This document shows positions 7,644 to 26,612 of a stretch of DNA of 64,000 nt, piece after piece; the first letter of the stretch is position 1; every line of letters starts with the position of its first letter. Position numbers and translations under genes: made by a program. The notes beneath the pieces were generated by a model. That model was not told the origin of the DNA, searched no databases, and worked only from the letters and a program-made list of their open reading frames with translations. The stretch comes from Patescibacteria group bacterium (GTDB taxonomy: Bacteria; Patescibacteriota; Microgenomatia; JAMCYU01), in assembly GCA_023473585.1 (NCBI GenBank), contig JAMCYU010000004.1, forward strand, positions 1,682 through 65,681, written 5' to 3'.

Positions 7644-8811
7644 ATACATTTTTGTTCTTGGGAGAACCGGCGATCTTTGTCGTTGGGAGTTGGTCAGTGT
7701 TCTCGCCAGAAAGAAAATCTCCTACCAGACGATTTTCTCGTCTTCGGACATTTTTCATCTTTCCACCACCACACCTCTTGATTTAGGGGTACTTATGGGG
7801 ATACTTGGGGGAACGGTTAAAATTGCCGAAGTCTTCGGTAAAATTGAAAATTCTAACGAGAACTCTTTGATTGACAAAATAATCTCTCATTTTCAAGAAA
7901 CGGAAGAAAGGAAAATTATTTTTGGTTTAAGCGGCTATCAGACTGTCAGCTTTCATGTTTTAAAACAATGGAACAAAAGCGTTAAGGAAGGATTGGAAGA
8001 ATTAAATTTAATAGCTAGATATCTTTTGCCTACCGAGGGGACAACTCTTTCTTCGGTGGTTCTGAAGAAACAAAAAGCCAGAGAAATTCTTGTGGTTGGG
8101 GAGGGCGAAAATTTTGTTTTGGCCCAAACTTTGGCGATTACGGATTTTGAAGATTGGGGGAAGAGGGATTTCGGCCGGCCCGCCGTTGATCCCGGCCACG
8201 GCATGTTGCCTCTTAAGGTGGCCCGGATGATGATTAATCTGGGCGGCTCGGAATTTCACGTTCCGAATTCGGAATTATCCCTTCTTGATCCCTTTTGCGG
8301 GGTAGGGACGATTTTACAAGAAGCCATGTTTTTGGGCTTTAAAGTTTTAGGCAGCGATCAAAGTCGAGAAGCTTTGGAAAAAACAAGAAAAAACCTCGAT
8401 TTTTTAAAAAATAATTTTAAACTTCAAAATCCAAACGATCAGCTTTTTCAACTGGAAGCGACCCAATTAACTCAAAAAATACCGAAAGAGTCAATTGACC
8501 TTATTGTTACCGAGCCTTATTTGGGACCGATGGAGGGGGAAACTCAAAACCTAAAAAATATCATTTTGGGTTTAGAAAAACTTTATCTTGGTTGTTTCCG
8601 CGAGTGGCTGTCCCTTTTGACAAATGATGGCAAAATCGTCATCGCTTTGCCTTCTTTTAAAGTCGGCAACCAGCAAATTTTCGTGAAAAAACCCATTGAC
8701 ATCTGTGAAACCTTGGGCTATACTCTTTTCGCCGGACCGTATCCGTATAGTCGGCCACAGGCTAGAGTTATTAGAAATATTTATATCTTAAAAAAACATG
8801 GCTCACATTAA
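7636..8811 (+). CDS. THUMP-MTase-like SAM-dependent RNA methyltransferase (Trm11/RlmL-like, UPF0020)
   Basis: N-terminus [14 protein letters not shown] resembles the UPF0020/Trm11 start. C-terminal MTase motifs LDPFCGVGT and [10 protein letters not shown] (a DPPY-type motif IV). It sits between rplU and rpmA. Confidence 0.5.
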
Positions 8812-9060: not shown

Positions 9061-9873
9061 ATGGCCGACGAACCGACTACCGAACTGGAAATTAATCTTT
9101 TGGAACCAAATCCTCTTCAGGCGCGCGCTGTTTTTACGCAAGAATCTTTGGAAGAATTAAGCAGTTCGATTAAAGAGCACGGCGTTTTGGAACCCATAAT
9201 CGTGGCTAAAACCCCAGCCGGTTATCAGATTATTGCCGGTGAAAGACGCTGGCGGGCCTCGAAATTAGCCGGTTTAAAAAAAGTCCCCGTGGTTATTAAA
9301 GAAACGACCAGCAAAGGGATGCTCGAGATGGCTTTGGTTGAAAACGTGCAACGAGAAGACTTAAATCCGATTGACCGAGGTCAAGCCTTTCAAAGGTTAA
9401 TTGATGAATTCGGCTTGCCGGTTTCGGAAGTCGCCAAGAGAATCGGGAAGAGCGAATCCTATGTTTCCAACACGATGAGACTTCTGAATTTGCCCGACGC
9501 GATTAAGGATGGTTTAATTTCCGGAGCAACGACCGAAGGACACGCGCGAGCGATCTCCGGTTTGGGCGAGACGAAATTAATGGTTGAGGCTTACAAGATT
9601 TTATTGTCGGAAAACGCTTCGGTTCGAAGAGCCGAAGAATTGGCTCGAAAAATGAAGGCCCAAAATTCTCAAGGTCCACGGGGAGTGACGGCCAAGATTT
9701 ACAGCGATGAATTAGAAAAAATGGAACAGGACATTACCGCCAAAATTGACGGAAAAACCAAAGTGAAAATTACGCAATCAAGCACCAGTGCCCGGTTGGT
9801 TATTGTGATCACCGAAAACAGAGTTAAAACAACGGAGCTTCTTCGGGATATTCACCGGAAATTAACTTCTTAA
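9061..9873 (+). CDS. parB: ParB/Spo0J-family partition protein
   Basis: ParB box IIAGERRWRASKLAGL and an HTH region. Confidence 0.8.
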   Translation: MADEPTTELEINLLEPNPLQARAVFTQESLEELSSSIKEHGVLEPIIVAKTPAGYQIIAGERRWRASKLAGLKKVPVVIKETTSKGMLEMALVENVQREDLNPIDRGQAFQRLIDEFGLPVSEVAKRIGKSESYVSNTMRLLNLPDAIKDGLISGATTEGHARAISGLGETKLMVEAYKILLSENASVRRAEELARKMKAQNSQGPRGVTAKIYSDELEKMEQDITAKIDGKTKVKITQSSTSARLVIVITENRVKTTELLRDIHRKLTS

Positions 9874-17588: not shown

Positions 17589-17703
17589 AACTTGATATTA
17601 TTTTACTCTAAAAGGAAACATAAATTCAAATAAAAGTGCCGAAAGTATTTATCAACCGACAGCAGAAGATTTAAAAGGCAAGTAAATCTTATCCTTCACG
17701 ATA

Positions 17704-18048
17704 TTATCTTTTCTCGCTTTTTAAAGAATTTAAAAACCAAGAAACAAGACTAAGAACCAAACTGAAGATGATGGCGGTGCCGATATTGCTGACGAAAAAT
17801 CCCGGGACGATGGCGCTTGCCAAAATAACCATAAGTCCGTTTAAAATTAAAATAAACAAGCCCAGGGTCATAATGGTAATGGGCAAAGTTAACAAAACCA
17901 GAATAGGTTTAATAATGGTGTTGGCAATACCCAAAACAACGCTGACCATAATGGCTGAGAAAAAATCTCTAATAACAACCCCTGGAAGAATTTGGGAAGT
18001 AATAAAAACCGCTAAACCATTAACTAATAAATTTAAGAACAGTCTCAT
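17704..18048 (-). CDS. DUF360/YvlD-like small membrane protein (phage-holin-4 superfamily)
   Basis: 114 aa with 4 TM helices and a PGV...LLTLPIT...LNG pattern. Confidence 0.45.
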   Translation of the reverse strand: MRLFLNLLVNGLAVFITSQILPGVVIRDFFSAIMVSVVLGIANTIIKPILVLLTLPITIMTLGLFILILNGLMVILASAIVPGFFVSNIGTAIIFSLVLSLVSWFLNSLKSEKR

Positions 18049-18079
18049 GAAATTAAAATAGCAGATTAGTTAACTAACG

Positions 18080-18868
18080 TCAATTGCTTTTTGATTCCTG
18101 ATAACCCGCGACTCTTTCGTAAAGTGGCCTTCCCGGACAAGGAGTAAACAAGACCGTATCTACTTGAAGACCGAAATCTCGAGAAATTAAAGAACTAATT
18201 TCTCCCGCGAGTTCTCGGTTTTTAATTCTTAAAATTCCCCCGCGGTGGCAAAAACCCGTGCAGCCGTTTTCGGCATAAATACCCAAAACAACCGGTTTTC
18301 TTTCTTTGCTTTTTAGACCTGTACGAGGCGCCACAAACAACGGCAAGGTTTCAATAAATCCGTTAACCCTTAAGGGATAATAAACAACTAAATCCTGTGT
18401 TTCTGTTTTGTATCCTTGTATAAATTCTTCAGCGGAAACTCTTTGATAAGGGAAATCAGGCCGACAAGTTTTTCTCTGATCGACAAATCCCGGTTTAGCC
18501 TCTAATTCTTCCCAAACTTCCAGATATGATTTTTGGCTTGAAAAAGTATGAATGTAAATATCGAGATATGAAACACCCTTCTTTTTTAGAGCTAATTCCA
18601 GTTTCTTTTCGTAAGCAAGCCACCAGTTATAGGAAAGCTTGTACCAAAAATAATGGTTACCTCTTTGCGACGAAAGTAATCCCCGGATATGAGGGAAAAA
18701 ATGATCGAGTAAGTCAATTTTTCCTCCTTGAGCGATAAAGGATTGAAGTTTGGGAATTGATGGTAAAGCATCAATCTGCCCAATATACGTATGTCTTGAA
18801 AAGGTTTCTTTAGGACTATAAGGTCTTGCGGTGACCATAAACTGCAGAGGAGAACCGTCAATTTCCAA
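18080..18868 (-). CDS. hypothetical protein (262 aa), possibly continuous with the upstream ORF fragment at 18880..19161
   Basis: No confident domain call. The preceding minus-strand ORF ends 11 nt upstream. Confidence 0.35.
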   Translation of the reverse strand: MEIDGSPLQFMVTARPYSPKETFSRHTYIGQIDALPSIPKLQSFIAQGGKIDLLDHFFPHIRGLLSSQRGNHYFWYKLSYNWWLAYEKKLELALKKKGVSYLDIYIHTFSSQKSYLEVWEELEAKPGFVDQRKTCRPDFPYQRVSAEEFIQGYKTETQDLVVYYPLRVNGFIETLPLFVAPRTGLKSKERKPVVLGIYAENGCTGFCHRGGILRIKNRELAGEISSLISRDFGLQVDTVLFTPCPGRPLYERVAGYQESKSN

Positions 18869-19190
18869 ATCAAGAACGGTTATCGGGGAACATGGGCGCC
18901 ACGGTATACATAAGCCTCACGATCGTCAGGCAGTTCCCTCATTCCTGCGGAAATCGCAAAGCGCCATGCTTTACGGGTCGGTATTTCCCCAAGGTAAACG
19001 AGACGTTTTTGGAATTGTTCAAAAGGTAAATATTCTCTTGGATCAGGTGCGTAATCCGTACTCCACCAATGAGGAGATGTCTGCTCAATAAGTCCTTTTG
19101 CTTTATACCCCTTAAGGATAGTTAAATAATCTACGCCGTTTGATTCAAATTCTGCGCTCATAAAATTGACTACATTTCGACAAGCAAAAT

Positions 19191-19380
19191 GCCCAATTGG
19201 AGCTCCTTTTATCAAAAAGCTCGAACTTATTTTACCAAAAATCTGTAACAAATCATAGCGCGTCGGCGGCTGCGGCGAGGAAAAGGGATTTAAGGGGAAA
19301 GGGAATCGCCGCAGCCGCCTCCGCTTTTCGCTCAGCCGCCATTCGGCGGGGCTCTCTTCCCGCAAAATTTTTCGCACCAT
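19191..19380. repeat. GC-rich structured repeat R1 (about 190 bp, + orientation)
   Basis: Contains a 13-bp-stem hairpin GGCGGCTGCGGCG...CGCCGCAGCCGCC and the hairpin gccgcc-attc-ggcggg. The reverse complement recurs at 24485..24670 and a partial copy at 21249..21343. Confidence 0.8.
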
Positions 19381-19418
19381 TAGAAAATTAAAAACAGGAG
19401 AAGAAAAAAACTATGAAT

Positions 19419-20810
19419 TCAATTATCCTTTATTCGTGGTAAAACTCGCATTAGATCAACCACGTTATCATAATCAGCCAAAGTTAGTAAATTTTCAAAA
19501 TTTTTAATTCCTTCACTTTCTATTCCCATTTCTTGACAAAGTCTTTTTAGAATTTCTTTCATTCTTTTTTCATCGGGATGGACCCTCTTAACCATTTCCT
19601 TAAAAAGATTACGAACTGTTGTCTTTTGGCCTTCATTGGCTGGTTTGGGAAAATTGAAATAAGCTAAGGGAATATCATGGTCTTCCCCTAAGATTTTTTG
19701 AGTAAGATTAACAAATTCTTGATACTCATCATTATAGTCTCTGGCTGGTATGTTAATTGAAGGCTTTTCTTTACCCCATTTTTTCTCCGCCGCTTTTCTA
19801 ATTTTCAAATTCCGAAGGGCTCTTATGATTGGCAAGGAAAATGGACAGACCTTTTCGCAATGACCGCAAAAAAGACAAGAAGCTGGCTTAACCGGTGTTT
19901 TATTATAGACCTCCATCAGCCAATCTTTTGGCCCAAATTTTTCAAAATATCCCTCAAGCCGCAAAAATAAAGTAATGTTGATTCTCGCCGGACAACCGCC
20001 GTCGCGAGTAATACAATAACCGCACGCCCGACAGAAAGGAAGACCGATTTTTTTCACCTCTTTTTTTAATTTCTCCTTATCTTCTTTAGTAAAATTCGGA
20101 TTTTTCAAAACTTCAACCACATCTTCGTTAAGTTCTCTTTCATTTAAAATTCCCGGAATAACAGTGGAAATAGTGGGGTTGATCAAACAAAACCGTATGG
20201 CGGCAGCCGCATTTTTAAAAGTTCCTCCAGCCAAAGGCTTCATCACAATAACGCCAATGTTTTCTTTTTGGCAAAATGGCAAAAGAACTTTGGTTGCCTC
20301 TTGCTCTTTGAAATTAAAATTGACCATTAAAACATCAAAAAGCCCGGTTTTAGCCACTAAAAGAAGGGTTTCAAGATTGTGTCCAGAAACACCGATAAAT
20401 TTAATTTTCCCTTCTTTTTGAGCTTCTTTTAAAGCTTTTAAGGCTCCATTTTGTGAAAGAACCAAATCCAGCATCTTTTTATCTTTAAGATGGTGAATCA
20501 TGTAAAGCTCAATAAAGTCGGTTTGAAGGTTTTTAAGACTTTGGGTGATTTCCTCTTTCATTTCCTTGAAAGTAAGCACCGGACTTTTAGAAGCAATAAT
20601 CCACTCCGAGCGGCAAGATTTAATTATTTTACCGACTTTTAGCTCGGAGTCGGTCCAGGCCCTGGCAGTATCAATAAAGTTTATTCCACATTGGTGAGCT
20701 TTATTAATAATATCAGCCGCCTCTTTAAAGGAAACTCTCTGGATAGGAATTGCCCCAAAACCGATCTCGGAAACTCTTAAATTGGTTCTGCCTAAAATTC
20801 TAAATTTCAC
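19419..20810 (-). CDS. aldo/keto reductase-family oxidoreductase with C-terminal 4Fe-4S (ferredoxin-like) domain
   Basis: AKR N-terminus (GFGAIPIQR...) and C-terminal CRACGYC...CLFCGHCEKVCP cysteine clusters. Confidence 0.7.
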   Translation of the reverse strand: MKFRILGRTNLRVSEIGFGAIPIQRVSFKEAADIINKAHQCGINFIDTARAWTDSELKVGKIIKSCRSEWIIASKSPVLTFKEMKEEITQSLKNLQTDFIELYMIHHLKDKKMLDLVLSQNGALKALKEAQKEGKIKFIGVSGHNLETLLLVAKTGLFDVLMVNFNFKEQEATKVLLPFCQKENIGVIVMKPLAGGTFKNAAAAIRFCLINPTISTVIPGILNERELNEDVVEVLKNPNFTKEDKEKLKKEVKKIGLPFCRACGYCITRDGGCPARINITLFLRLEGYFEKFGPKDWLMEVYNKTPVKPASCLFCGHCEKVCPFSLPIIRALRNLKIRKAAEKKWGKEKPSINIPARDYNDEYQEFVNLTQKILGEDHDIPLAYFNFPKPANEGQKTTVRNLFKEMVKRVHPDEKRMKEILKRLCQEMGIESEGIKNFENLLTLADYDNVVDLMRVLPRIKDN

Positions 20811-21208
20811 TTTTTTGTTAAAGAGATAACACTACTTATTAAATCAGAAATCTTATCGGTTTTTTGGGCCATTTTTTCTAACTGGCATTGGTTTCCCTTT
20901 TTGTTGTCGTAAATTTTCTCGACAATTTTTTCTGCATATAAAGGAATTTTTCGTTCTTGGCAGAAAACGAGAGCTAAACTACTTGCTAAGAGACTAAAGA
21001 TTTCCTTAACTCCGGAAAAAACAGCAATTTTTGCCGCGGCCAAACCGATTGTTTTATCATAAATAGTTGCCTGTTTAAGAAAACCTTTTTTAGAAGCAAT
21101 GACTAAATCCAAAATCCCTTGATGATTTGATCGAAAAACTACGCTCCGACCGCTTTTAATAATAAGAGTATATTTTCCTTCTTTAATTTGTTGTAAATAT
21201 GTAGTCAT
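20807..21208 (-). CDS. hypothetical protein (133 aa), translationally coupled to the oxidoreductase
   Basis: 4-nt ATGA overlap with the downstream gene. No confident domain. Confidence 0.4.
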   Translation of the reverse strand: MTTYLQQIKEGKYTLIIKSGRSVVFRSNHQGILDLVIASKKGFLKQATIYDKTIGLAAAKIAVFSGVKEIFSLLASSLALVFCQERKIPLYAEKIVEKIYDNKKGNQCQLEKMAQKTDKISDLISSVISLTKK

Positions 21209-21248: not shown

Positions 21249-21343
21249 CGAAAATTTTGCAGGAAGCGCAGCCGCCTCCACATTTGCTCGCCCCGCCATT
21301 CGGCGGGGCTCGCTTCCCGCAAAATTTTTCGCGCCAGAAATAA
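21249..21343. repeat. partial internal copy R2 of the GC-rich repeat (self-complementary hairpin)
   Basis: cgaaaattttgcaggaagcg...gccccgcc-attc-ggcggggc...cgcttcccgcaaaatttttcg. About 85% identical to the 3' part of R1, in the same orientation. Confidence 0.7.
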
Positions 21344-21485
21344 AAAATAAGAAGGGAAGACACGCTTGGCTCAAGTCACCCATCCGCGCGTGTCAAAAAT
21401 GTAGTCCCTAAAAAGCAGGGGTATTTTGTTAAGAACCCATTGACATTCCATAAAAATTTCTCTACTCTAAAGATAGAGAAAATTT

Positions 21486-22343
21486 ATGAAAAAACATCTT
21501 CCCCAAAGCCATCAGGCTATAAGTAGTAAATTAAAATATCTACTTCCTGCACTCATTTTTTCTCTTGTTTTCTTCGGCACTGTAACTGCTGTCCAGAACC
21601 AAAACTCTACCCGCGTATTAGGAGAACAGACTGAACAGAAAGGAAATCAAGAAAACAAAGAAGGCACTGAGCCAAAAGAGCAAGTTGAACAGGCTGAGCC
21701 AACAGAAGCACCGGAGCCCACCGAAACTCCCGAGCAAGAACAGGAACATGAACAAGAAGCAGAAAAAATCCATCAGGAAGTGCAAAAGGAAATACAAAAT
21801 AATAATGTGGATAAAGTTGAACTTCATCCAACTTCAGAAAAACCTGGGGAAGGAACGTTAAAGATTGAAAAAGTAAATGGTTCCTCAACCGAAAAAACAG
21901 TCCCTTCTTCAGTCGCATCTCTTATTAGCATTCAAAATAGTCAGGCCGGAAGTGTTTCTATTAGTGTCAGCAAAAATGGTACAGTCACATTGGTTAATGG
22001 AGGTATTACAGTCCAGACGAATTACCCCGTTGTTATTGATCCTCAAACTCAAACAATTGCAATTAAAACAACAAACGGCGTGACTGTTATCAACTCACTT
22101 CCTTCGCAGGCACTAAACGGTGTCCAACCTATCGATAAGCCAACTACCATACAATCAGCGGTACTCGGGACACAAAATGGGCAAGCCTATTATGATGTAA
22201 AAGGAGTGCAACAGAGAAGGTTTGTTGGCTTGGTGCCAATTAAGGCAAACGTTGAAACAAAGATTGATGCGCAAAACGGATCAACAATATCTGTCAACAA
22301 ACCGTGGTATTTAAATATCTTTGGCTTTCTTTACTCCATATAG
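21486..22343 (+). CDS. secreted/membrane-anchored protein with E/P/T/Q-rich low-complexity linker
   Basis: N-terminal hydrophobic segment, an acidic EQ/EP-repeat linker and a T/V/N-rich beta-rich C-terminus. Confidence 0.5.
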   Translation: MKKHLPQSHQAISSKLKYLLPALIFSLVFFGTVTAVQNQNSTRVLGEQTEQKGNQENKEGTEPKEQVEQAEPTEAPEPTETPEQEQEHEQEAEKIHQEVQKEIQNNNVDKVELHPTSEKPGEGTLKIEKVNGSSTEKTVPSSVASLISIQNSQAGSVSISVSKNGTVTLVNGGITVQTNYPVVIDPQTQTIAIKTTNGVTVINSLPSQALNGVQPIDKPTTIQSAVLGTQNGQAYYDVKGVQQRRFVGLVPIKANVETKIDAQNGSTISVNKPWYLNIFGFLYSI

Positions 22344-22399
22344 CCAAAACTGTAATTCCCCATTTTCTTCCCATATTTCTTCCACTATAATACCTCTGT

Positions 22400-23083
22400 A
22401 TGCAGATTCTGATTGTGGAAGACGAGGAAAAAATCGCCAATTCCTTACGACGGGGGCTCTTGGAAGAACGCTATACTGTTGATCTGGCCCGCGACGGCGA
22501 AGAAGCGCTTTACAAACTTGACATCAACGAGTATGACCTGGTTATTTTGGATTTAATGATCCCCAAAGTGGACGGTATTACAGTTTGTCGCCAAATTCGC
22601 CAGACCAACTCTCATCTTCCCATTCTTATATTAACAGCTAAAGATGGGACCGAAGACAAAATTACGGGGCTTGACGCGGGCGCCGATGATTATATCACTA
22701 AACCTTTTTCTTTCTCGGAACTTTCGGCAAGGATAAGGGCTCTTTTCAGAAGGGGTCGCAAAGCGGATCCCACGATTCTTGTTTTTGATGATTTATCGCT
22801 TGACCCGGCCACGAAAACCGCCAAACGTAAAAATAAAGTAATTACCCTAACCGCAAAAGAGTATGCGCTTCTGGAATACTTTATGCGCTATCCAAACAAG
22901 GTTTTAACCAAGACAGAGCTATTGGAGCATATCTGGGATTATAATTATGACGGACTTTCCAACATGGTGGAAACGTATGTTAAATATTTGCGAAAAAAAA
23001 TAAAAGTGGACGGGCAAAGCCGTGAACTTATCCATACCATGCGGGGCTCAGGTTATATCTTAAAGAAAGACGATCATGTTTAA
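22400..23083 (+). CDS. OmpR/PhoB-family response regulator
   Basis: Receiver DEEK...D...ILDLMIP...K and a winged-helix output domain (LTAKEYALLEYF). Confidence 0.85.
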   Translation: MQILIVEDEEKIANSLRRGLLEERYTVDLARDGEEALYKLDINEYDLVILDLMIPKVDGITVCRQIRQTNSHLPILILTAKDGTEDKITGLDAGADDYITKPFSFSELSARIRALFRRGRKADPTILVFDDLSLDPATKTAKRKNKVITLTAKEYALLEYFMRYPNKVLTKTELLEHIWDYNYDGLSNMVETYVKYLRKKIKVDGQSRELIHTMRGSGYILKKDDHV

Positions 23084-23993
23084 AAAAGCGCGTATACAAC
23101 TGATATTTTTTTATTCTCTTGTTTTTCTCTTCTTCTTCTGGCTATCTAATACAACTTTATATTTATTGGTGGGTCAATCCTTAGGAGGCGACCCATCCTT
23201 AATAGTGTTTTGGGATACTTTATTTCTATTAAATATTGTCTTCATTTTTTTAGTACCCTTTATTGCCTGGTTTTTCACTTTGTTAACTCTTAAACCGGTA
23301 CAGAAAATTCATGAGCAGCAAAAACAGTTTATATCTGATGTGTCCCATGAATTAAGAACTCCTCTTTCCATATTAAGTAGCGAAATAGACGTAGCTTTGA
23401 AAAAAAATCGCCGGACAACATTTTACAAACAGATTCTGACCAGCAATAAACAGGAAGTGGGCCGTTTGGCAGCTTTAGTCGAAAACCTGTTATTTCTTGC
23501 CAGAGAAGATGAGGGGCAACAAACTGTAAAGTTTGAAAGAGTAGACATTACTGATCTTCTGGGAAATGTCACTGCTTCACTGAAGGACAAAAGCGTTAAA
23601 AAGAAAATCTCTATACATTTTGAAGCGGCAGAGGAGGCGGTGGTAGTTTCGGGACAACCAACAATGCTAAGACAACTTTTTCTCAATATTATTGACAATG
23701 CCATCAACTACACACCAATAAACGGCGCTGTGTGGGTTAGTTTGAGAAGCCAAAAGCAATATGCGCAAATAAAGATAAAAGATACAGGGATTGGTATATC
23801 AGAAGGGGATCAGAAAAAGATCTTTGAACGTTTTTATAGAGTAGATTCTTCCCGTTCTCAAGTAAGCGGTTACGGACTCGGCCTTCCTATCTGCCAATCT
23901 ATTGTTCGGCTTCATCAAGGAAGTATTATGGTTCACTCTCGTTTAGGAAAAGGGTCGGTATTTACCGTTCTACTTCCCAGAGCTTCCCGCTAA
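23076..23993 (+). CDS. sensor histidine kinase (2 TM, HisKA + HATPase_c)
   Basis: H-box VSHELRTPL, N-box IIDNAINYT, and G-boxes DTGIGI and GYGLGL. Confidence 0.8.
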   Translation: MFKKARIQLIFFYSLVFLFFFWLSNTTLYLLVGQSLGGDPSLIVFWDTLFLLNIVFIFLVPFIAWFFTLLTLKPVQKIHEQQKQFISDVSHELRTPLSILSSEIDVALKKNRRTTFYKQILTSNKQEVGRLAALVENLLFLAREDEGQQTVKFERVDITDLLGNVTASLKDKSVKKKISIHFEAAEEAVVVSGQPTMLRQLFLNIIDNAINYTPINGAVWVSLRSQKQYAQIKIKDTGIGISEGDQKKIFERFYRVDSSRSQVSGYGLGLPICQSIVRLHQGSIMVHSRLGKGSVFTVLLPRASR

Positions 23994-24081
23994 ATACCAG
24001 GTTTCTTCCACAGTCTTCCCATATCTCATTTTATATACTGACGTTGTTATTTATTTTTAATAAGAAAGGGGGTGAAAATAT

Positions 24082-24387
24082 ATGAACATCAAAAAAACAG
24101 TACCACTTGCTGCTTTGGCGTTGGTGCTTTTGGGTGGCGGTGCTTTTGGGATAAGTAGGGTGAAAGCAGCTCCTGTCCACGCTCAAACTCCAACTATCCA
24201 GTCTCAAAGTGCAACGCAGCAAACAGCTGATAAAGAAACCAACGATGGTGCAACTGAAGTAAAAGAGGCACGAGAAGGAGTTGAAAGTGTTGAACCCGCC
24301 AACGAACAGGCGCAGGAGAAAAACCTGCCAGGCGGCGGACACCAGGATCAAGGTCAGGCAGACCACCAGTTTGAAGGCGTTGAGTAA
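24082..24387 (+). CDS. small secreted protein (101 aa, signal peptide, Q/E-rich)
   Basis: Signal peptide MNIKKTVPLAALALVLLGGGAFG and a strong SD aagggggtg. Confidence 0.5.
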   Translation: MNIKKTVPLAALALVLLGGGAFGISRVKAAPVHAQTPTIQSQSATQQTADKETNDGATEVKEAREGVESVEPANEQAQEKNLPGGGHQDQGQADHQFEGVE

Positions 24388-24446: not shown

Positions 24447-24484
24447 AAACTTTTATTTTCTTTTTTCCTTCCTAATATCTAAAC

Positions 24485-24670
24485 GGCGCGAAAAATTTTG
24501 CGGGAAGCGAGCCCCGCCGAATGGCGGGGCGAGCAAATGAGGTGGCGGCTACGGCGATTCCTTTTCCCCTTAAACCCCTTTTCCTCGCCGCAGCCGCCGA
24601 CGCGCTATGATTTGTTACAGATTTTTGGTAAAATAAGTTCGAGCTTTTTGATAAAAGGAGCTCCAATTGG
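24485..24670. repeat. GC-rich structured repeat R1' (inverted copy of 19191..19380)
   Basis: About 90% identical to the reverse complement of R1. Ends in ggagctccaattggg. Confidence 0.8.
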
Positions 24671-24752
24671 GAAATCGCGGCGCTCGCTTTGCGAGCGCCC
24701 ATTCGTTTAACGCCTCAAATCGGACTTTTTTATCACAGAATTGCCAGTTCGT
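24660..24752. repeat. about 90-bp inverted repeat B (left arm) flanking the recombinase
   Basis: gctccaattgggaaatcgcggcgctcgctttgcgagcgcc... is the reverse complement of 26422..26513 (about 90% identity). Contains the hairpin GGCGCTCGC-ttt-GCGAGCGCC. Confidence 0.75.
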
Positions 24753-25036
24753 TTGTGCGAAGCACAAAATCAAACTTCGTTTGACATCCAATTTTTTGCC
24801 TTTCGTCAAAGACGAAAATTCCAGATTTTCAGAAAGAAAGCGCCAATTTACTCAGCCTTTGGCGGAGCTGCCCAAAAGCGAAAAGAATTTTTGCGATGCT
24901 ATTGAAAAAGTTTTGTAAAACTTGTTATACTAATGCTGGTTTCAGCATTAAAGGTCGTCCTTTTTAGTAGCCGTCTCGGACAATTCAGGGCGACTTGAGT
25001 TGAGACCACCGGGGCGGCTATTTAAGTTTTACAAAC

Positions 25037-26612
25037 ATGACTAACAACTTTCCGCAAAAATTCTTTCTCTATGCCCGCAAATCTACAGATGAAGCGGACA
25101 GGCAAGTTTTATCAATTGAAGCGCAACTAACTGAAGTCAGAGAGTATGCTCAAAAAGAAAATCTGTTGATTGTTCGTGAGTTTATTGAGACAAAATCAGC
25201 CAAACAACCAGGCAGAGAAATTTTTGAGAAAATGTTAGCGGGCATAGAGAACGGTGAGGCAAATGGAATTTTAGCGTGGCATCCGGATAGAGTCGCCAGA
25301 AATGCGGTTGACGCTGGAAAAATTATTCACCTTCTCGATAGAGGATTTTTAGCCACGCTAAAATTCCCCACTTTCTGGTTTGACAAAACTCCTCAAGGAC
25401 TTTTTATGCTCTCAATCGCTTTTGGGCAGAGCAAATATTACATCGATAATCTTTCGGAAAATATCAAGCGGGGCATACGCCAAAAACTACGAAAAGGAAT
25501 TTATCCAGGGGTGTGCACCACTTGGTTATGTTAACGAATTGAAAAATCACACCATTCTTAAAGACCCGGAAACTTGGCAAAAAGTCAGAAAACTTTTTCT
25601 GGCGTGTGCCGTAGGTAAATATACGCTTGATCATTTGCAAAAATTGGCGCTTTCTTTTGGCTTGGTGAGCCCAAGATCGAAAAGAAAATTATCAAACGCT
25701 ACTTTACAGCGATTGCTCCAAAACCCCTTTTACTATGGCTGTTTTCAATACAAAGGTGAGCTTTACGAAGGAGTCCATGAGCCAATAATTTCCCAGCAAC
25801 TTTTTGAAAAGGTGCAGCGGGTAATGAGTGATCGCGGAAAACCAAAGAAAGAAAATCAGGATTACAACTTTATTTACACTGGAATTTTTAAGTGTGGCGA
25901 ATGTGGTCGAGCTATCACCGCTGAACAGCATACTAAAAAATCTGGTTTGGTTTTCCGCTATTACCGTTGCACCAAAAAGGACACTGATTGTCAACAAAAG
26001 TTTCTCAACGAGAATGATTTATTTGCTCAACTCAACGATATTTTTCAAAAAGTTGCTTTACCAGACGGCTGGTTGAAACCAATCTTAAATAAACTTGACC
26101 AAGAGGAAAAAGAAATCAGCCAGTCGTCAAAATCTTTCGCCCAAAATCTCCAAAGAGAAATCGGTGAAATTGAAGTCAAGCTCTCCAAAGTCCTTGATAT
26201 GCAACTAGATGGTTCAATTTCTCTTGAGGAATACAAAAAGAAAAAGGAAGAACTTATAAACCGAAAAACCGGACTGAAACAAAAATTAGCTGATTTTGAG
26301 CGAAAGGGAAATTATTGGCTCGAACCGATGAGGAATTTCATTTTAGCCGCTCACCAAGCCAATTTATTAATAAATTCTGAAAATTTGGAAGAGAAGCGTA
26401 GCTTCCTGCAAAAAATTGGCTCGAACTGGCAACTCTGCGATAAAAAAGTCAGATTTGAGGCGTTAAACGAATGGGCGCTCGCAAAGCGAGCGCCGCGATT
26501 TCCCAATTGGAGCGGGATAGCGGAATCGAACCGCCTTCTCTACCTTGGGAAGGTAGCATACTACCGGTGTACTAATCCCGCACTAAAAAATCTAAACGAT
26601 TTTTCAGTGTAA
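25037..26612 (+). CDS. large serine recombinase (resolvase catalytic domain + recombinase domain + zinc ribbon + coiled coil), interrupted by a +1 frameshift
   Basis: Catalytic domain YARKSTDEADRQVLSIEAQ with the Ser nucleophile. After the break the frame continues ...PG/CAPLGYVNE, with zinc ribbon CGECGRAIT...YYRCTKKD. Frames 25037..25534 and 25380..26612 join at the G4 run 25508-25511. The ORF's 3' end reads through repeat B' and antisense tRNA-Gly. Confidence 0.75.
26422..26513. repeat. inverted repeat B' (right arm), immediately 3' of tRNA-Gly
   Basis: Reverse complement of 24660..24752. Confidence 0.75.
26508..26581 (-). tRNA. tRNA-Gly (anticodon CCC), CCA encoded
   Basis: Reverse complement: acceptor GCGGGAT/ATCCCGC, anticodon stem CTACC/GGTAG with loop TTCCCAA, T-loop TTCGATT, 3' TCCA. 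Confidence 0.75.

Follow-up and report, generated by a model that had tools for sequence, protein, structure and literature searches.

The segment 19192-26513 of the window (the whole 64-kb stretch of DNA analysed here) probably represents an integrated and by now degenerate cargo island, one of a large family of small islands in Patescibacteria (CPR) moved by a large serine recombinase (LSR) at the 3' ends of tRNA genes. This extent includes 5.1 kb of cargo and replaces the limits of 24660-26581 given in a preliminary description of the same DNA. The family is widespread in CPR bacteria and apparently undescribed in the searchable literature, where a search on Patescibacteria or CPR together with serine recombinases returned no relevant report. 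Patescibacteria are regarded as poor in recognisable mobile elements; with cargo that includes restriction-modification, CBASS-like and metabolic genes, the islands would give these bacteria a major means of acquiring such functions.

Recombinase, repeats and cargo in the window

The LSR gene (25037-26513, plus strand) encodes a protein of ~492 residues comprising Resolvase, Recombinase and Zn_ribbon_recom domains, recovered after removal of one G as PF00239 (2.3e-21), PF07508 (1.3e-11) and PF13408 (3.3e-08), with a YARKST motif at residues 12-17 and weak PDB matches to the A118 integrase and SPbeta YokA (E ~5e-8). The three domains and the two structural matches bear out the earlier identification as a large serine recombinase. 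The gene is split into two open reading frames, 25037-25534 and 25380-26612, by a single surplus G in the GGGG run at 25508-25511. At this spot five close homologues read CCN GGY TGY GCN, and the stretch is uninterrupted in each of the 58 homologue sequences read, none of which has the frameshift. The frameshifted sequence is identical in GCA_023380895.1 and in the Logan assemblies of SRR10267473 and SRR10252151, which makes a random assembly error unlikely; the frameshift, already noted in the preliminary description, is genuine. The downstream frame passes through the antisense tRNA gene and stops at 26612, and the family-typical end ...PRFPNWS falls at the core of the recombination site; the readthrough, previously taken as a sign of decay, is normal for an integrated copy of the gene in this family. 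Upstream lie a promoter-like TTGTAA-N17-TATACT and a conserved leader of ~90 nt (24914-25036, plus strand), for which a pseudoknot is predicted. Rfam families gave no match in R1, B or the leader besides tRNAs.

Two pairs of inverted repeats organise the island. The B/B' pair (24660-24751, minus strand, and 26422-26513, plus strand; 92 nt, 97% identity, 3 mismatches) brackets the recombinase, as had been described; the B' arm is the 3' end of the recombinase gene, and the B arm, which includes a GC-rich hairpin, is an inverted, non-coding copy of its last 92 nt. The R1/R1' pair has a stretch of 137 nt (19192-19328 and 24535-24671, 96% identity), beyond which similarity of ~80% extends to 19410 and 24453. 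The B and R1' repeats share 12 nt, 24660-24671, and the corresponding 12-mer CCCAATTGGAGC occurs in exactly three copies in the window, at 19192 (plus), 24660 (minus) and 26502 (plus); allowing at most one mismatch, 0.46 matches are expected, and three or more were reached in 1 of 100 shuffles.

These copies mark three sites: (i) site 1 (19192-19203, plus strand), attL-like, in which the host-side flank is followed by the core CCCAATTGGAGC, with the cross-locus conserved core TGGAGC at 19198-19203, and by the P'-type R1 arm (19204-19410, plus strand); (ii) site 2 (24660-24671, minus strand), internal, inverted and attP-like, in which GCTCCAATTGGG stands between R1', the inverted copy of R1 (24453-24659, minus strand), and B; and (iii) site 3 (26502-26513, plus strand), attR-like and putatively re-usable as a target, in which B', its left arm, is followed by the core and the antisense tRNA-Gly(CCC) (26508-26581, minus strand). 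The repeat covers the last 6 nt of this tRNA gene, GCTCCA, within the core common to the three sites, which agrees with the earlier placement of the element at the tRNA-Gly 3' end. The reverse complement of site 2 equals site 3 on its left side and site 1 on its right side at every base, and the left side of site 1 is unrelated to it; the stretch 24657-24671 is thus a true hybrid of two parental LSR sites, as the preliminary description had proposed. Judged by this identity, site 2 is the attP-like junction expected from excision. The tRNA bases 3' of the crossover, presumably at positions 71-72, and the terminator-like hairpin downstream would then come from the element. R1 contains 15 codons able to extend the recombinase reading frame (SFYQKARTYFTKNL and a stop codon), a CTCGAAC mimic of the T-arm at a distance of 17 nt from the core, as well as two GC-rich hairpins. 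A small protein encoded across site 2 by the minus-strand frame 24615-24809 was considered and rejected, since the equivalent frame in the Ser lineage has no start codon and the seeming homology past B amounts to a few residues at most.

The cargo comprises two modules. Module A (19419-21208, minus strand) contains an aldo/keto reductase with Fe-S domains (19419-20810) and a DUF1893 protein (20807-21208). Module B (21486-24387, plus strand) contains a secreted protein of 285 residues, an OmpR-type response regulator (22400-23083), a histidine kinase (23076-23993) and a secreted protein of 101 residues (24082-24387). Between them lies a partial third copy of R1 (21267-21355, plus strand), comprising its distal part in direct orientation relative to R1, probably the remnant of an older unit whose recombinase would have been deleted.

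Related loci and half-site motifs

Homologues of the recombinase number more than 6,000 at E <= 1e-20, and 83 related loci were surveyed. In 73 of them the 3' end of the LSR gene recurs as an inverted copy on the other side of the gene; a recombinase between inverted repeats is thus the canonical arrangement, and neither decay nor a single inversion, as previously suggested, accounts for it. The suggestion of decay does hold for the window copy itself, where the R1 pair is 93% identical compared to 98-100% elsewhere, the frameshift is reproducible and a remnant third repeat is present; with the LSR inactivated by the +1 frameshift, the window island is probably immobile.

The outer arm ends inside a convergent tRNA gene for Gly, Ser, Gln, Val or Trp. 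Among the 73 repeat-flanked loci, 54 abut a tRNA 3' end by a test of +/-20 nt, the other 19 being contig ends, arrays or tRNAs that this test missed; in 40 of these 54 the distance from the junction to the CCA end is 6 nt. The median identity of the B and B' arms is 100%, and the left arm is closest to its own right arm in 66 of 73 loci. An R1/R1' pair is also present in 22 of the 83 loci, the window included, around variable cargo of 1.3-9.1 kb, and in the window and all 21 other two-pair loci site 2 combines the left half of site 3 with the right half of site 1. Alignments of the three sites show hybrids built in this way in each of the Gly, Ser, Gln and Trp lineages.

The core common to the loci is short, with 4-7 nt (TGGAGC in Gly, TGGCGG in Ser, TGGCTG in Gln and GCAG in Trp), and corresponds to the reverse complement of tRNA positions 71-76 (N71 N72 N73 CCA; GCTCCA in the window). 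The palindrome CCAATTGG with its central AT, put forward earlier as the crossover, does not withstand this comparison: what other loci have in common is limited to the final 4-7 nt of the core, and one of them (L020) reads CCCGACTGGAGC in its place.

The half-sites carry a displaced motif. With positions counted from an inferred site centre, CGAAC occupies half-site index 14-18 (positions ~15-19) in the tRNA arms and index 19-23 (positions ~20-24) in the R1 arms of the Gly, Ser and Gln lineages, the T-arm mimic of R1 thus sitting 5 bp farther out than the tRNA motif, as in attP compared to attB half-sites. For the integrase of the Listeria innocua prophage (LI, A118 family), the ZD motif is reported at positions 11-19 in attB and 16-24 in attP (PMC3783163); the 5-bp shift of CGAAC agrees with this rule and designates R1 as a P-type and the tRNA arm as a B-type half-site. 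The left arm, formed by the LSR 3' end, shows motif spacing that looks B-type rather than P-type, an ambiguous assignment, so that the canonical attP, attB, attL and attR labels fit poorly.

R1 encodes a conserved C-terminal tail of ~15 residues for the recombinase. In the Ser lineage, differences in this stretch number 526 at third codon positions, compared to 122 at first and 137 at second positions, and the ratio of synonymous to non-synonymous codon differences is 313:292 in the reading frame but 71:586 and 51:594 in the other two frames. By this substitution pattern, the R1 tail is coding. Three database proteins, P0021, P0027 and P0037, terminate in the R1-encoded tail.

Mobility, proposed recombination scheme and alternative explanations

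Mobility of the family is backed by indirect evidence, read from sequence comparisons: (i) twelve relatives without any LSR keep the order tRNA-Gly(CCC)-LysM-tRNA-Asp-PolX-LemA, as distant relatives with PolX identity of at most 65%; (ii) cargo and LSR of 99.5% identity adjoin different tRNA-Ser genes in the locus pairs L074/L075 and L087/L089, possibly including assembly chimeras across a multi-copy repeat; and (iii) tandem arrays occur in L082 and L088. In addition, one LSR unit stands between two inverted tRNA-Gly genes (L033), an orphan segment is bounded by R1-like repeats (L020), and the GC skew is reversed over 18-24 kb of the window. The analysis recovered no excised circle, nor did any near-identical genome supply a truly empty site, the nearest relatives having just 65% PolX identity; a search by exact protein for other junctions within this population returned just the identical sequence, broken at repeats. 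A circular reading of the contig L047 was set aside, its end overlap being imperfect and an array the better reading. A prophage was likewise discarded, given cargo of 1-9 kb, no phage genes and a single distant IMG/VR match.

Three parts of the following scheme are inferred: which dinucleotide is the exact crossover, that excision yields a circle, and what site 2 does. The divergent LSR would recombine at the tRNA 3' end, with a crossover within tRNA positions 71-74, the tRNA T-arm serving as B-type and R1 as P-type half-site. Sites 1 and 3 would be direct attL- and attR-like borders whose recombination releases a circle carrying cargo and LSR, and the circle junction, LSR 3' end / core / R1, would complete the LSR reading frame with the conserved tail. 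The same junction is kept permanently, in inverted orientation, between the cargo and the LSR as site 2, which leaves both modules bracketed by inverted sites. In the preferred reading, site 2 acts as a live attP-type site that resides in the island and is able to recombine with tRNA sites; it could also allow the LSR segment to flip and thereby gain a full C-terminus. The tandem arrays in L082 and L088 are part of the basis for regarding site 3 as a re-usable target. An extension of this scheme, which we regard as possible but rather doubtful, is a serine integrase controlled without a directionality factor, in which the LSR would be complete, with its conserved tail, only through fusion of its 3' end to R1. 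Insertion at the tRNA would remove the tail, an inverted spare comprising the gene end together with core, tail and terminator would lie just upstream as site 2, and either excision or a flip of the 1.8-kb recombinase segment would restore the full-length enzyme. With the tRNA-side junction staying a valid target, one chemistry would then serve integration, array building and cassette exchange at the universally conserved tRNA 3' end and T-arm.

A resident inversion switch comparable to Hin, Gin or the shufflons, in which the LSR flips its own segment through B/B', the cargo through R1/R1', or both, would toggle recombinase C-termini or cargo expression and make the tRNA a mere landmark. Such a switch would account for inverted crossover sites and near-perfect inverted repeats around every module, for a B repeat constant at 92 nt across Gly-lineage LSRs that share just 55-90% identity, for the joining of the gene to a conserved R1 tail on a flip of the LSR segment, and for the palindromic contig L041, which fits mixed cargo orientations. 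We consider it unlikely, as no flipped LSR segment or cargo was found among ~70 loci, read as consensus contigs in which minor isomers are invisible, and as a conserved backbone of ~385 nt with an HTH gene always lies beside the LSR in at least 12 Ser-lineage loci, with cargo genes nearly always on the strand opposite the LSR. Moreover, every LSR that reads into R1 and could be placed is the distal unit of a tandem array: P0021 (L110) marks an array junction and not a flipped isomer, and none was seen for P0027 (L109), whose contig is too short upstream for placement. Inversion alone would also leave the absence in relatives, the differing tRNA partners and the arrays unexplained.

It is very improbable that site 2 and B are functionless relics of a second, head-to-head recombinase copy. 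B does copy a gene 3' end, and the window copy is decaying, with its frameshift, 3 and 11 mismatches in the two repeat pairs and a partial third R1; yet the exact abutment, the sharp repeat edge and arm identities of 95-100% recur with LSRs only ~50% identical and at five tRNA types, a recurrence across diverged lineages in which neutral relics would not persist. Hardly credible, too, is an IS-like serine-transposase element, B...LSR...B', with terminal inverted repeats beside a separate R1-flanked passenger element. The single-gene unit of ~1.85 kb between 92-nt inverted repeats invites this view, as do the many contigs of 1.7-2.0 kb that carry just the LSR unit and its isolated occurrence in L033; however, the short contigs reflect assembly breaks at repeats, and the unit is seen only at tRNA 3' ends or within arrays. 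In addition, the inferred central dinucleotide is non-palindromic in the Ser (GG) and Gln (TG) lineages, so that sites 2 and 3 would be truly inverted and unable to excise the LSR unit. Treating the cargo as a simple insertion at a palindromic attP (R1'/core/R1) was rejected as well, the inferred dinucleotides of sites 1 and 2 being opposed in Ser and Gln. Finally, short-read assemblies break at or within repeats, and L041 is palindromic, so the hybrid junction might be an artefact of repeats mis-joined from a mixed population; this was rejected as extremely unlikely, as more than 70 contigs, produced by many studies and assemblers and including some of 90-960 kb, have the same site order, and the window sequence itself recurs in three assemblies.

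Comparison with known recombinase systems

The island recombinases resemble those of phages (A118/LI, SPbeta SprA, Bxb1 and phiC31) in their Resolvase, Recombinase and zinc-ribbon domains, the last with a coiled-coil insert, in hybrid-site junctions and in a half-site motif 5 bp farther from the centre in the element arm. Compared to phage systems, (i) the islands target the tRNA 3' end and T-arm with the crossover inside the integrase reading frame, so that recombination exchanges its last ~15 codons; (ii) the integrated island retains a complete inverted attP-like site, and its tRNA-side junction would remain a usable target, giving rise to tandem arrays; and (iii) no recombination directionality factor is evident in the islands, whose cargo amounts to 1-9 kb and which are not prophages. 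They would offer natural LSRs whose target half-site, a tRNA acceptor and T-arm, is found in every genome, and matched element and target pairs for five tRNA types as a data set on the re-targeting of LSR specificity. An att site inside the integrase frame is of interest for recombinase biology, and the three-site layout with a resident inverted attP-like site is not explained by the current attP, attB, attL and attR rules.

Inverted crossover sites also bracket the segments of Hin/Gin/Cin systems and shufflons, and the recombinase gene lies inside the segment, as in Hin; in the Mu G segment and the R64 shufflon, inversion exchanges alternative gene 3' ends. On the other hand, Hin, Gin and Cin are small serine invertases that use an enhancer and Fis, the shufflon employs the tyrosine recombinase Rci, and these are fixed loci in which both orientations are readily seen, whereas the islands are mobile at tRNA genes and were observed in one orientation. 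The island LSR, by its length and domains, is not a small invertase (~190 residues, with a C-terminal HTH). In SSV1-type archaeal integrases attP lies inside the int gene, so that integration alters the integrase coding sequence; these are tyrosine recombinases whose gene is split in two, whereas in the islands the exchange is confined to the C-terminal tail, with a spare copy of the gene end kept in cis. SCCmec with its Ccr recombinases and Tn4451 with TnpX are LSR-driven cargo elements with circular excision and tandem accumulation at a regenerated target, but they target rlmH (orfX) or GA dinucleotides, have no internal inverted site and keep the recombinase frame off the att site. The low target specificity of IS607- or TnpX-type elements is not seen here, given the share of repeat-flanked loci that abut a tRNA 3' end (54/73).

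A comparable layout is that of the tycheposons of Prochlorococcus, likewise small cargo elements at tRNA genes with an integrase beside the tRNA and with arrays. The tycheposon paper describes a tRNA-adjacent integrase and cargo with a full tRNA on one side and a partial tRNA repeat on the other, adaptive or defence cargo and a minority of elements using large serine recombinases (10.1101/2020.12.28.424599). It also describes mostly tyrosine recombinases, many elements with replication genes and Prochlorococcus hosts, and a term search of the paper found neither module-flanking inverted repeats nor an internal inverted att site (10.1101/2020.12.28.424599). A tRNA-adjacent LSR and cargo are present here as well, in a CPR host, with a direct repeat of just 4-12 nt from the tRNA 3' end.

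Repeat architecture and the three junction sites

The repeat finder detects two inverted pairs in the window, including (i) the arms B (24660-24751) and B' (26422-26513), 92 nt long and 97% identical, and (ii) a second pair, 19192-19328 and 24535-24671, 137 nt long and 96% identical, with a weaker extension to 19410 and 24453, containing the repeat R1 and its inverted copy R1'. Where these pairs overlap they share the 12-mer GCTCCAATTGGG, whose complement CCCAATTGGAGC occurs at only three places in the 64 kb: 19192 (site 1, flank-core-R1), 24660 on the minus strand (site 2, R1'-core'-B, inverted) and 26502 (site 3, B'-core-antisense tRNA-Gly). The tRNA-Gly(CCC) gene (26508-26581, minus strand) contributes its last six bases, GCTCCA, to the repeat. 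In the three-site alignment, the left half of the site 2 reverse complement is identical to site 3 and the right half to site 1; the inverted repeats around the recombinase, the hybrid junction and the tRNA-Gly abutment claimed in the preliminary description are all confirmed.

That description had read the recombinase and its inverted repeats as a possibly decaying integrative or invertible module; the same layout proves widespread among the 83 loci compared (80 from metagenomes, two from encoding contigs and the window). In 73 of them, the 3' end of the large serine recombinase (LSR) gene recurs in inverted orientation upstream of that gene (55-146 nt, median arm identity 100%); the other ten are mostly truncated contigs. 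The downstream arm ends within a convergent tRNA, comprising Gly (tcc, gcc, ccc), Ser (four anticodons), Gln, Val and Trp. The second inverted pair is also present in 22 of the 83 loci, window included (105-281 nt, mostly 98-100% identical), enclosing 1.3-9.1 kb of unrelated cargo, with the inner arm joining the first pair through the common core; all loci with both pairs display the hybrid site 2 seen in the window.

Because sites 1 and 3 are direct repeats, their recombination would yield a circle carrying two inverted copies of a B'-core-R1 site. Site 2 may be a resident attP-type site, and may also be a spare gene end that would let flipping rebuild a full-length enzyme. Identity between the non-coding B arm and the coding arm is kept at 95-100%, and the inner boundary of B is sharp and lineage-specific, with a length of 92 nt throughout Gly-lineage LSRs that are just 55-90% identical to one another; this pattern favours gene conversion or some function. 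Neither a flipped LSR segment nor a flipped cargo was found among the related loci. Cargo genes and the LSR occupy opposite strands in nearly all cases, a conserved backbone of ~385 nt with a 71-aa HTH gene always adjoins the LSR in the Ser lineage, and the LSRs that read into R1 belong to arrays (for P0027, contig L109 is too short upstream to tell).

Several Ser-lineage loci carry an additional perfect inverted repeat of 27-29 nt (L087, 8222-8249 and 9870-9897; also L055, L064, L080, L082, L086, L089, L096 and L102), with one copy in the LSR coding sequence immediately upstream of B' and the other left of R1', near the conserved HTH gene (L087, 7893-8108, minus strand). The contig L041 (1-8610) has perfectly inverted ends of 2,126 nt, each with a whole recombinase unit, reflecting either collapsed repeats traversed during assembly or mixed cargo orientations. 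In L075 (4160-4246), the outer ~25 nt of the recombinase 3' arm match L086 and not the near-identical twin L074, whereas the upstream copy of the arm matches L074, so the element ends are mosaic.

Crossover position and half-sites

Across loci, the sequence common to all three sites is only 4-7 nt: TGGAGC (Gly), TGGCGG (Ser), TGGCTG (Gln) and GCAG (Trp). In 40 of 54 loci, sites 3 and 2 start to diverge 6 nt from the end of the encoded CCA, and where CCA is not encoded the distance is 4 nt from the end; this places the exchange, on sequence comparison, within tRNA positions 71-74. The earlier reading of a hybrid between parental sites stands, but not its crossover at the CCAATTGG palindrome with central AT, which is specific to the sublineage of the window; L020 has CCCGACTGGAGC there. 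The final two common bases of the Ser and Gln lineages (GG, TG), which we infer to be the central dinucleotide, are non-palindromic, and the three sites of these lineages therefore have a true polarity: forward, reverse, forward.

Counted from the junction, CGAAC occupies index 14-18 in the tRNA arm, within the T-arm sequence GGAATCGAAC, and index 19-23 in the R1 arm, within AAGCTCGAAC; the Gly, Ser and Gln lineages agree in this. With the central dinucleotide taken as the end of the shared core, the two CGAAC motifs fall at half-site positions ~15-19 (tRNA) and ~20-24 (R1). In the Listeria innocua prophage (LI, A118-family) integrase, the ZD motif covers positions 11-19 in attB and 16-24 in attP, and its outer ends, 19 and 24, coincide with the CGAAC endpoints in the tRNA and R1 arms (PMC3783163); on this basis R1 is an arm of P' type and the tRNA one of B' type. 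On the left, the arm formed by the LSR 3' end has GGGAAAT at roughly B-type distance; additional coding constraint on this sequence leaves the type of the arm uncertain.

The recombinase gene, its ends and its leader

The gene between the repeats encodes an LSR with Resolvase, Recombinase and Zn_ribbon_recom domains. As previously described, a single additional G in the run GGGG at 25508-25511 breaks the ORF; five close homologues have CCN GGY TGY GCN there. GCA_023380895.1 and the Logan assemblies of two sequencing runs contain the identical frameshifted sequence, so the frameshift is a real mutation of the population, or at least a reproducible call. The repaired LSR retrieves 6,409 database homologues at E <= 1e-20; those named are CPR bacteria throughout, the nearest 87-91% identical, and characterised integrases (A118 and SPbeta YokA, E ~5e-8) are only distantly related. 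PolX and its neighbours assign the window to Microgenomates-like Patescibacteria, with a Gottesmanbacteria genome as top match (65% identity).

Homologues have a natural length of ~491-493 aa and end in ...PRFPNWSG. Read-through into the antisense tRNA had been taken as a possible sign of decay; many annotated homologue ORFs instead continue into the antisense strand of various tRNA genes, and an ORF ending at, often reading into, a convergent tRNA is thus a rule of the family, not a defect of the window copy. When the element is integrated next to a tRNA, this read-through takes the place of a tail encoded by R1. In the recombinase frame the tail reads W-[SRL]-[CS]-x-[YFL]-x-x-[AVI]-R-T-x-F-x-x-N, followed by a stop codon, and proteins P0021, P0027 and P0037 end with it. 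In the Ser lineage, tail differences number 526 at third codon positions versus 122 at first and 137 at second positions, with synonymous to non-synonymous codon differences of 313:292 in frame versus 71:586 and 51:594 out of frame; codon differences in the Gly lineage follow the same trend. This codon-position and synonymous bias indicates that the LSR-to-R1 junction is a translated, selected configuration. For Arg, the codons CGA, CGG and AGA occur; for Thr, all four do.

The motif of the R1 half-site, GGCTCGAAC, occurs twice in the LSR coding sequence (26415-26435 and 26317-26325), encoding KIGSN and WLEP, with one copy exactly at the B' inner boundary; these copies may be coincidental or an extra candidate binding site. 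Eight homologues (P0032, P0036, P0038, P0041, P0051, P0053, P0056 and P0057) are 'fusion' ORFs of ~900 aa in which a complete LSR runs directly into a second LSR truncated at the motif LAFGQSKYY, suggesting a sister lineage that inserts into recombinase genes themselves.

A conserved leader of ~90 nt (24936-25034), present only in the closest (Gly-A) sublineage, separates a promoter-like element from the recombinase ATG and matches nothing in Rfam. Its predicted fold is a pseudoknot comprising P1 (24938-24946/24999-25007), P2 (~24953-24960/24988-24995) and P3 (24966-24979/25009-25022); in seven sequences, 98.4% of cells pair, compared with 30-50% for slid partners, with compensatory changes in nine pairs.

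Probable mobility of the islands, their cargo, and decay of the window copy

The order tRNA-Gly(CCC)-LysM-tRNA-Asp-PolX-LemA is kept in twelve relatives, with tRNA-Thr nearby in some, and the LSR is absent from this locus in all twelve. The pairs L074/L075 and L087/L089 share cargo and LSR at 99.5% identity, yet in the assembled contigs adjoin different tRNA-Ser genes, divergence beginning 19-30 nt inside the tRNA. Tandem arrays (cargo-LSR-cargo-LSR-tRNA) in L082 and L088 imply that the tRNA-side junction is still usable as a target, and in L087 the flank left of site 1 is a remnant of the 3' end of another LSR. It is to the integrative-island mechanism that we commit. Recombination of site 2 with another tRNA site would be expected to yield an LSR unit such as that of L033 (7773-9772), between two inverted tRNA-Gly(TCC) genes (7844-7918, plus; 9628-9702, minus), and an orphan segment such as that of L020 (14801-17942), which has two genes between 205-225-nt inverted repeats related to R1, has no adjoining recombinase and looks like an orphan cargo module. 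The cargo is rich in restriction-modification (type II, IIG) and SMODS + SLATT (CBASS-like) genes, and also comprises Hsp70-like, AlbA_2 and metabolic genes; GC skew is reversed across 18-24 kb of the window.

A search of the full text of open-access papers for Patescibacteria or the candidate phyla radiation with serine recombinases returned nothing relevant, and LSR islands may be described elsewhere, beyond such papers. The nearest concept is the tycheposon of Prochlorococcus; a term search of the paper on it found neither inverted-repeat modules nor an internal site described.

Decay, as proposed earlier, does apply to the window copy, which is degenerate in four respects: (i) the LSR frameshift; (ii) three B/B' mismatches, all within the inner third of the arm; (iii) an R1 pair identity of 93%, versus 98-100% elsewhere; and (iv) a third, partial copy of distal R1 in direct orientation (21267-21355), which suggests that two units accreted and that the distal recombinase was later deleted.

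Among related element-free tRNA-Gly(CCC) genes (L001-L018), 10 of 12 do not encode CCA, in contrast to the window (26508-26513); most element-bearing tRNAs encode it because the element supplies CCA. The two L033 tRNA-Gly(TCC) genes have ~70 nt of upstream sequence in common, and their anticodon stems differ by compensating changes. The interval from tRNA-Thr to site 1 (17589-19191) comprises three ORFs, for a 114-aa membrane protein and proteins of 262 aa and 93 aa; the Pfam scan, covering the latter two, gave no match, and the relatives lack counterparts of all three. In one of these relatives, L008, the distance between tRNA-Thr and tRNA-Gly is 183 bp. The interval in the window may be what remains of an older island.
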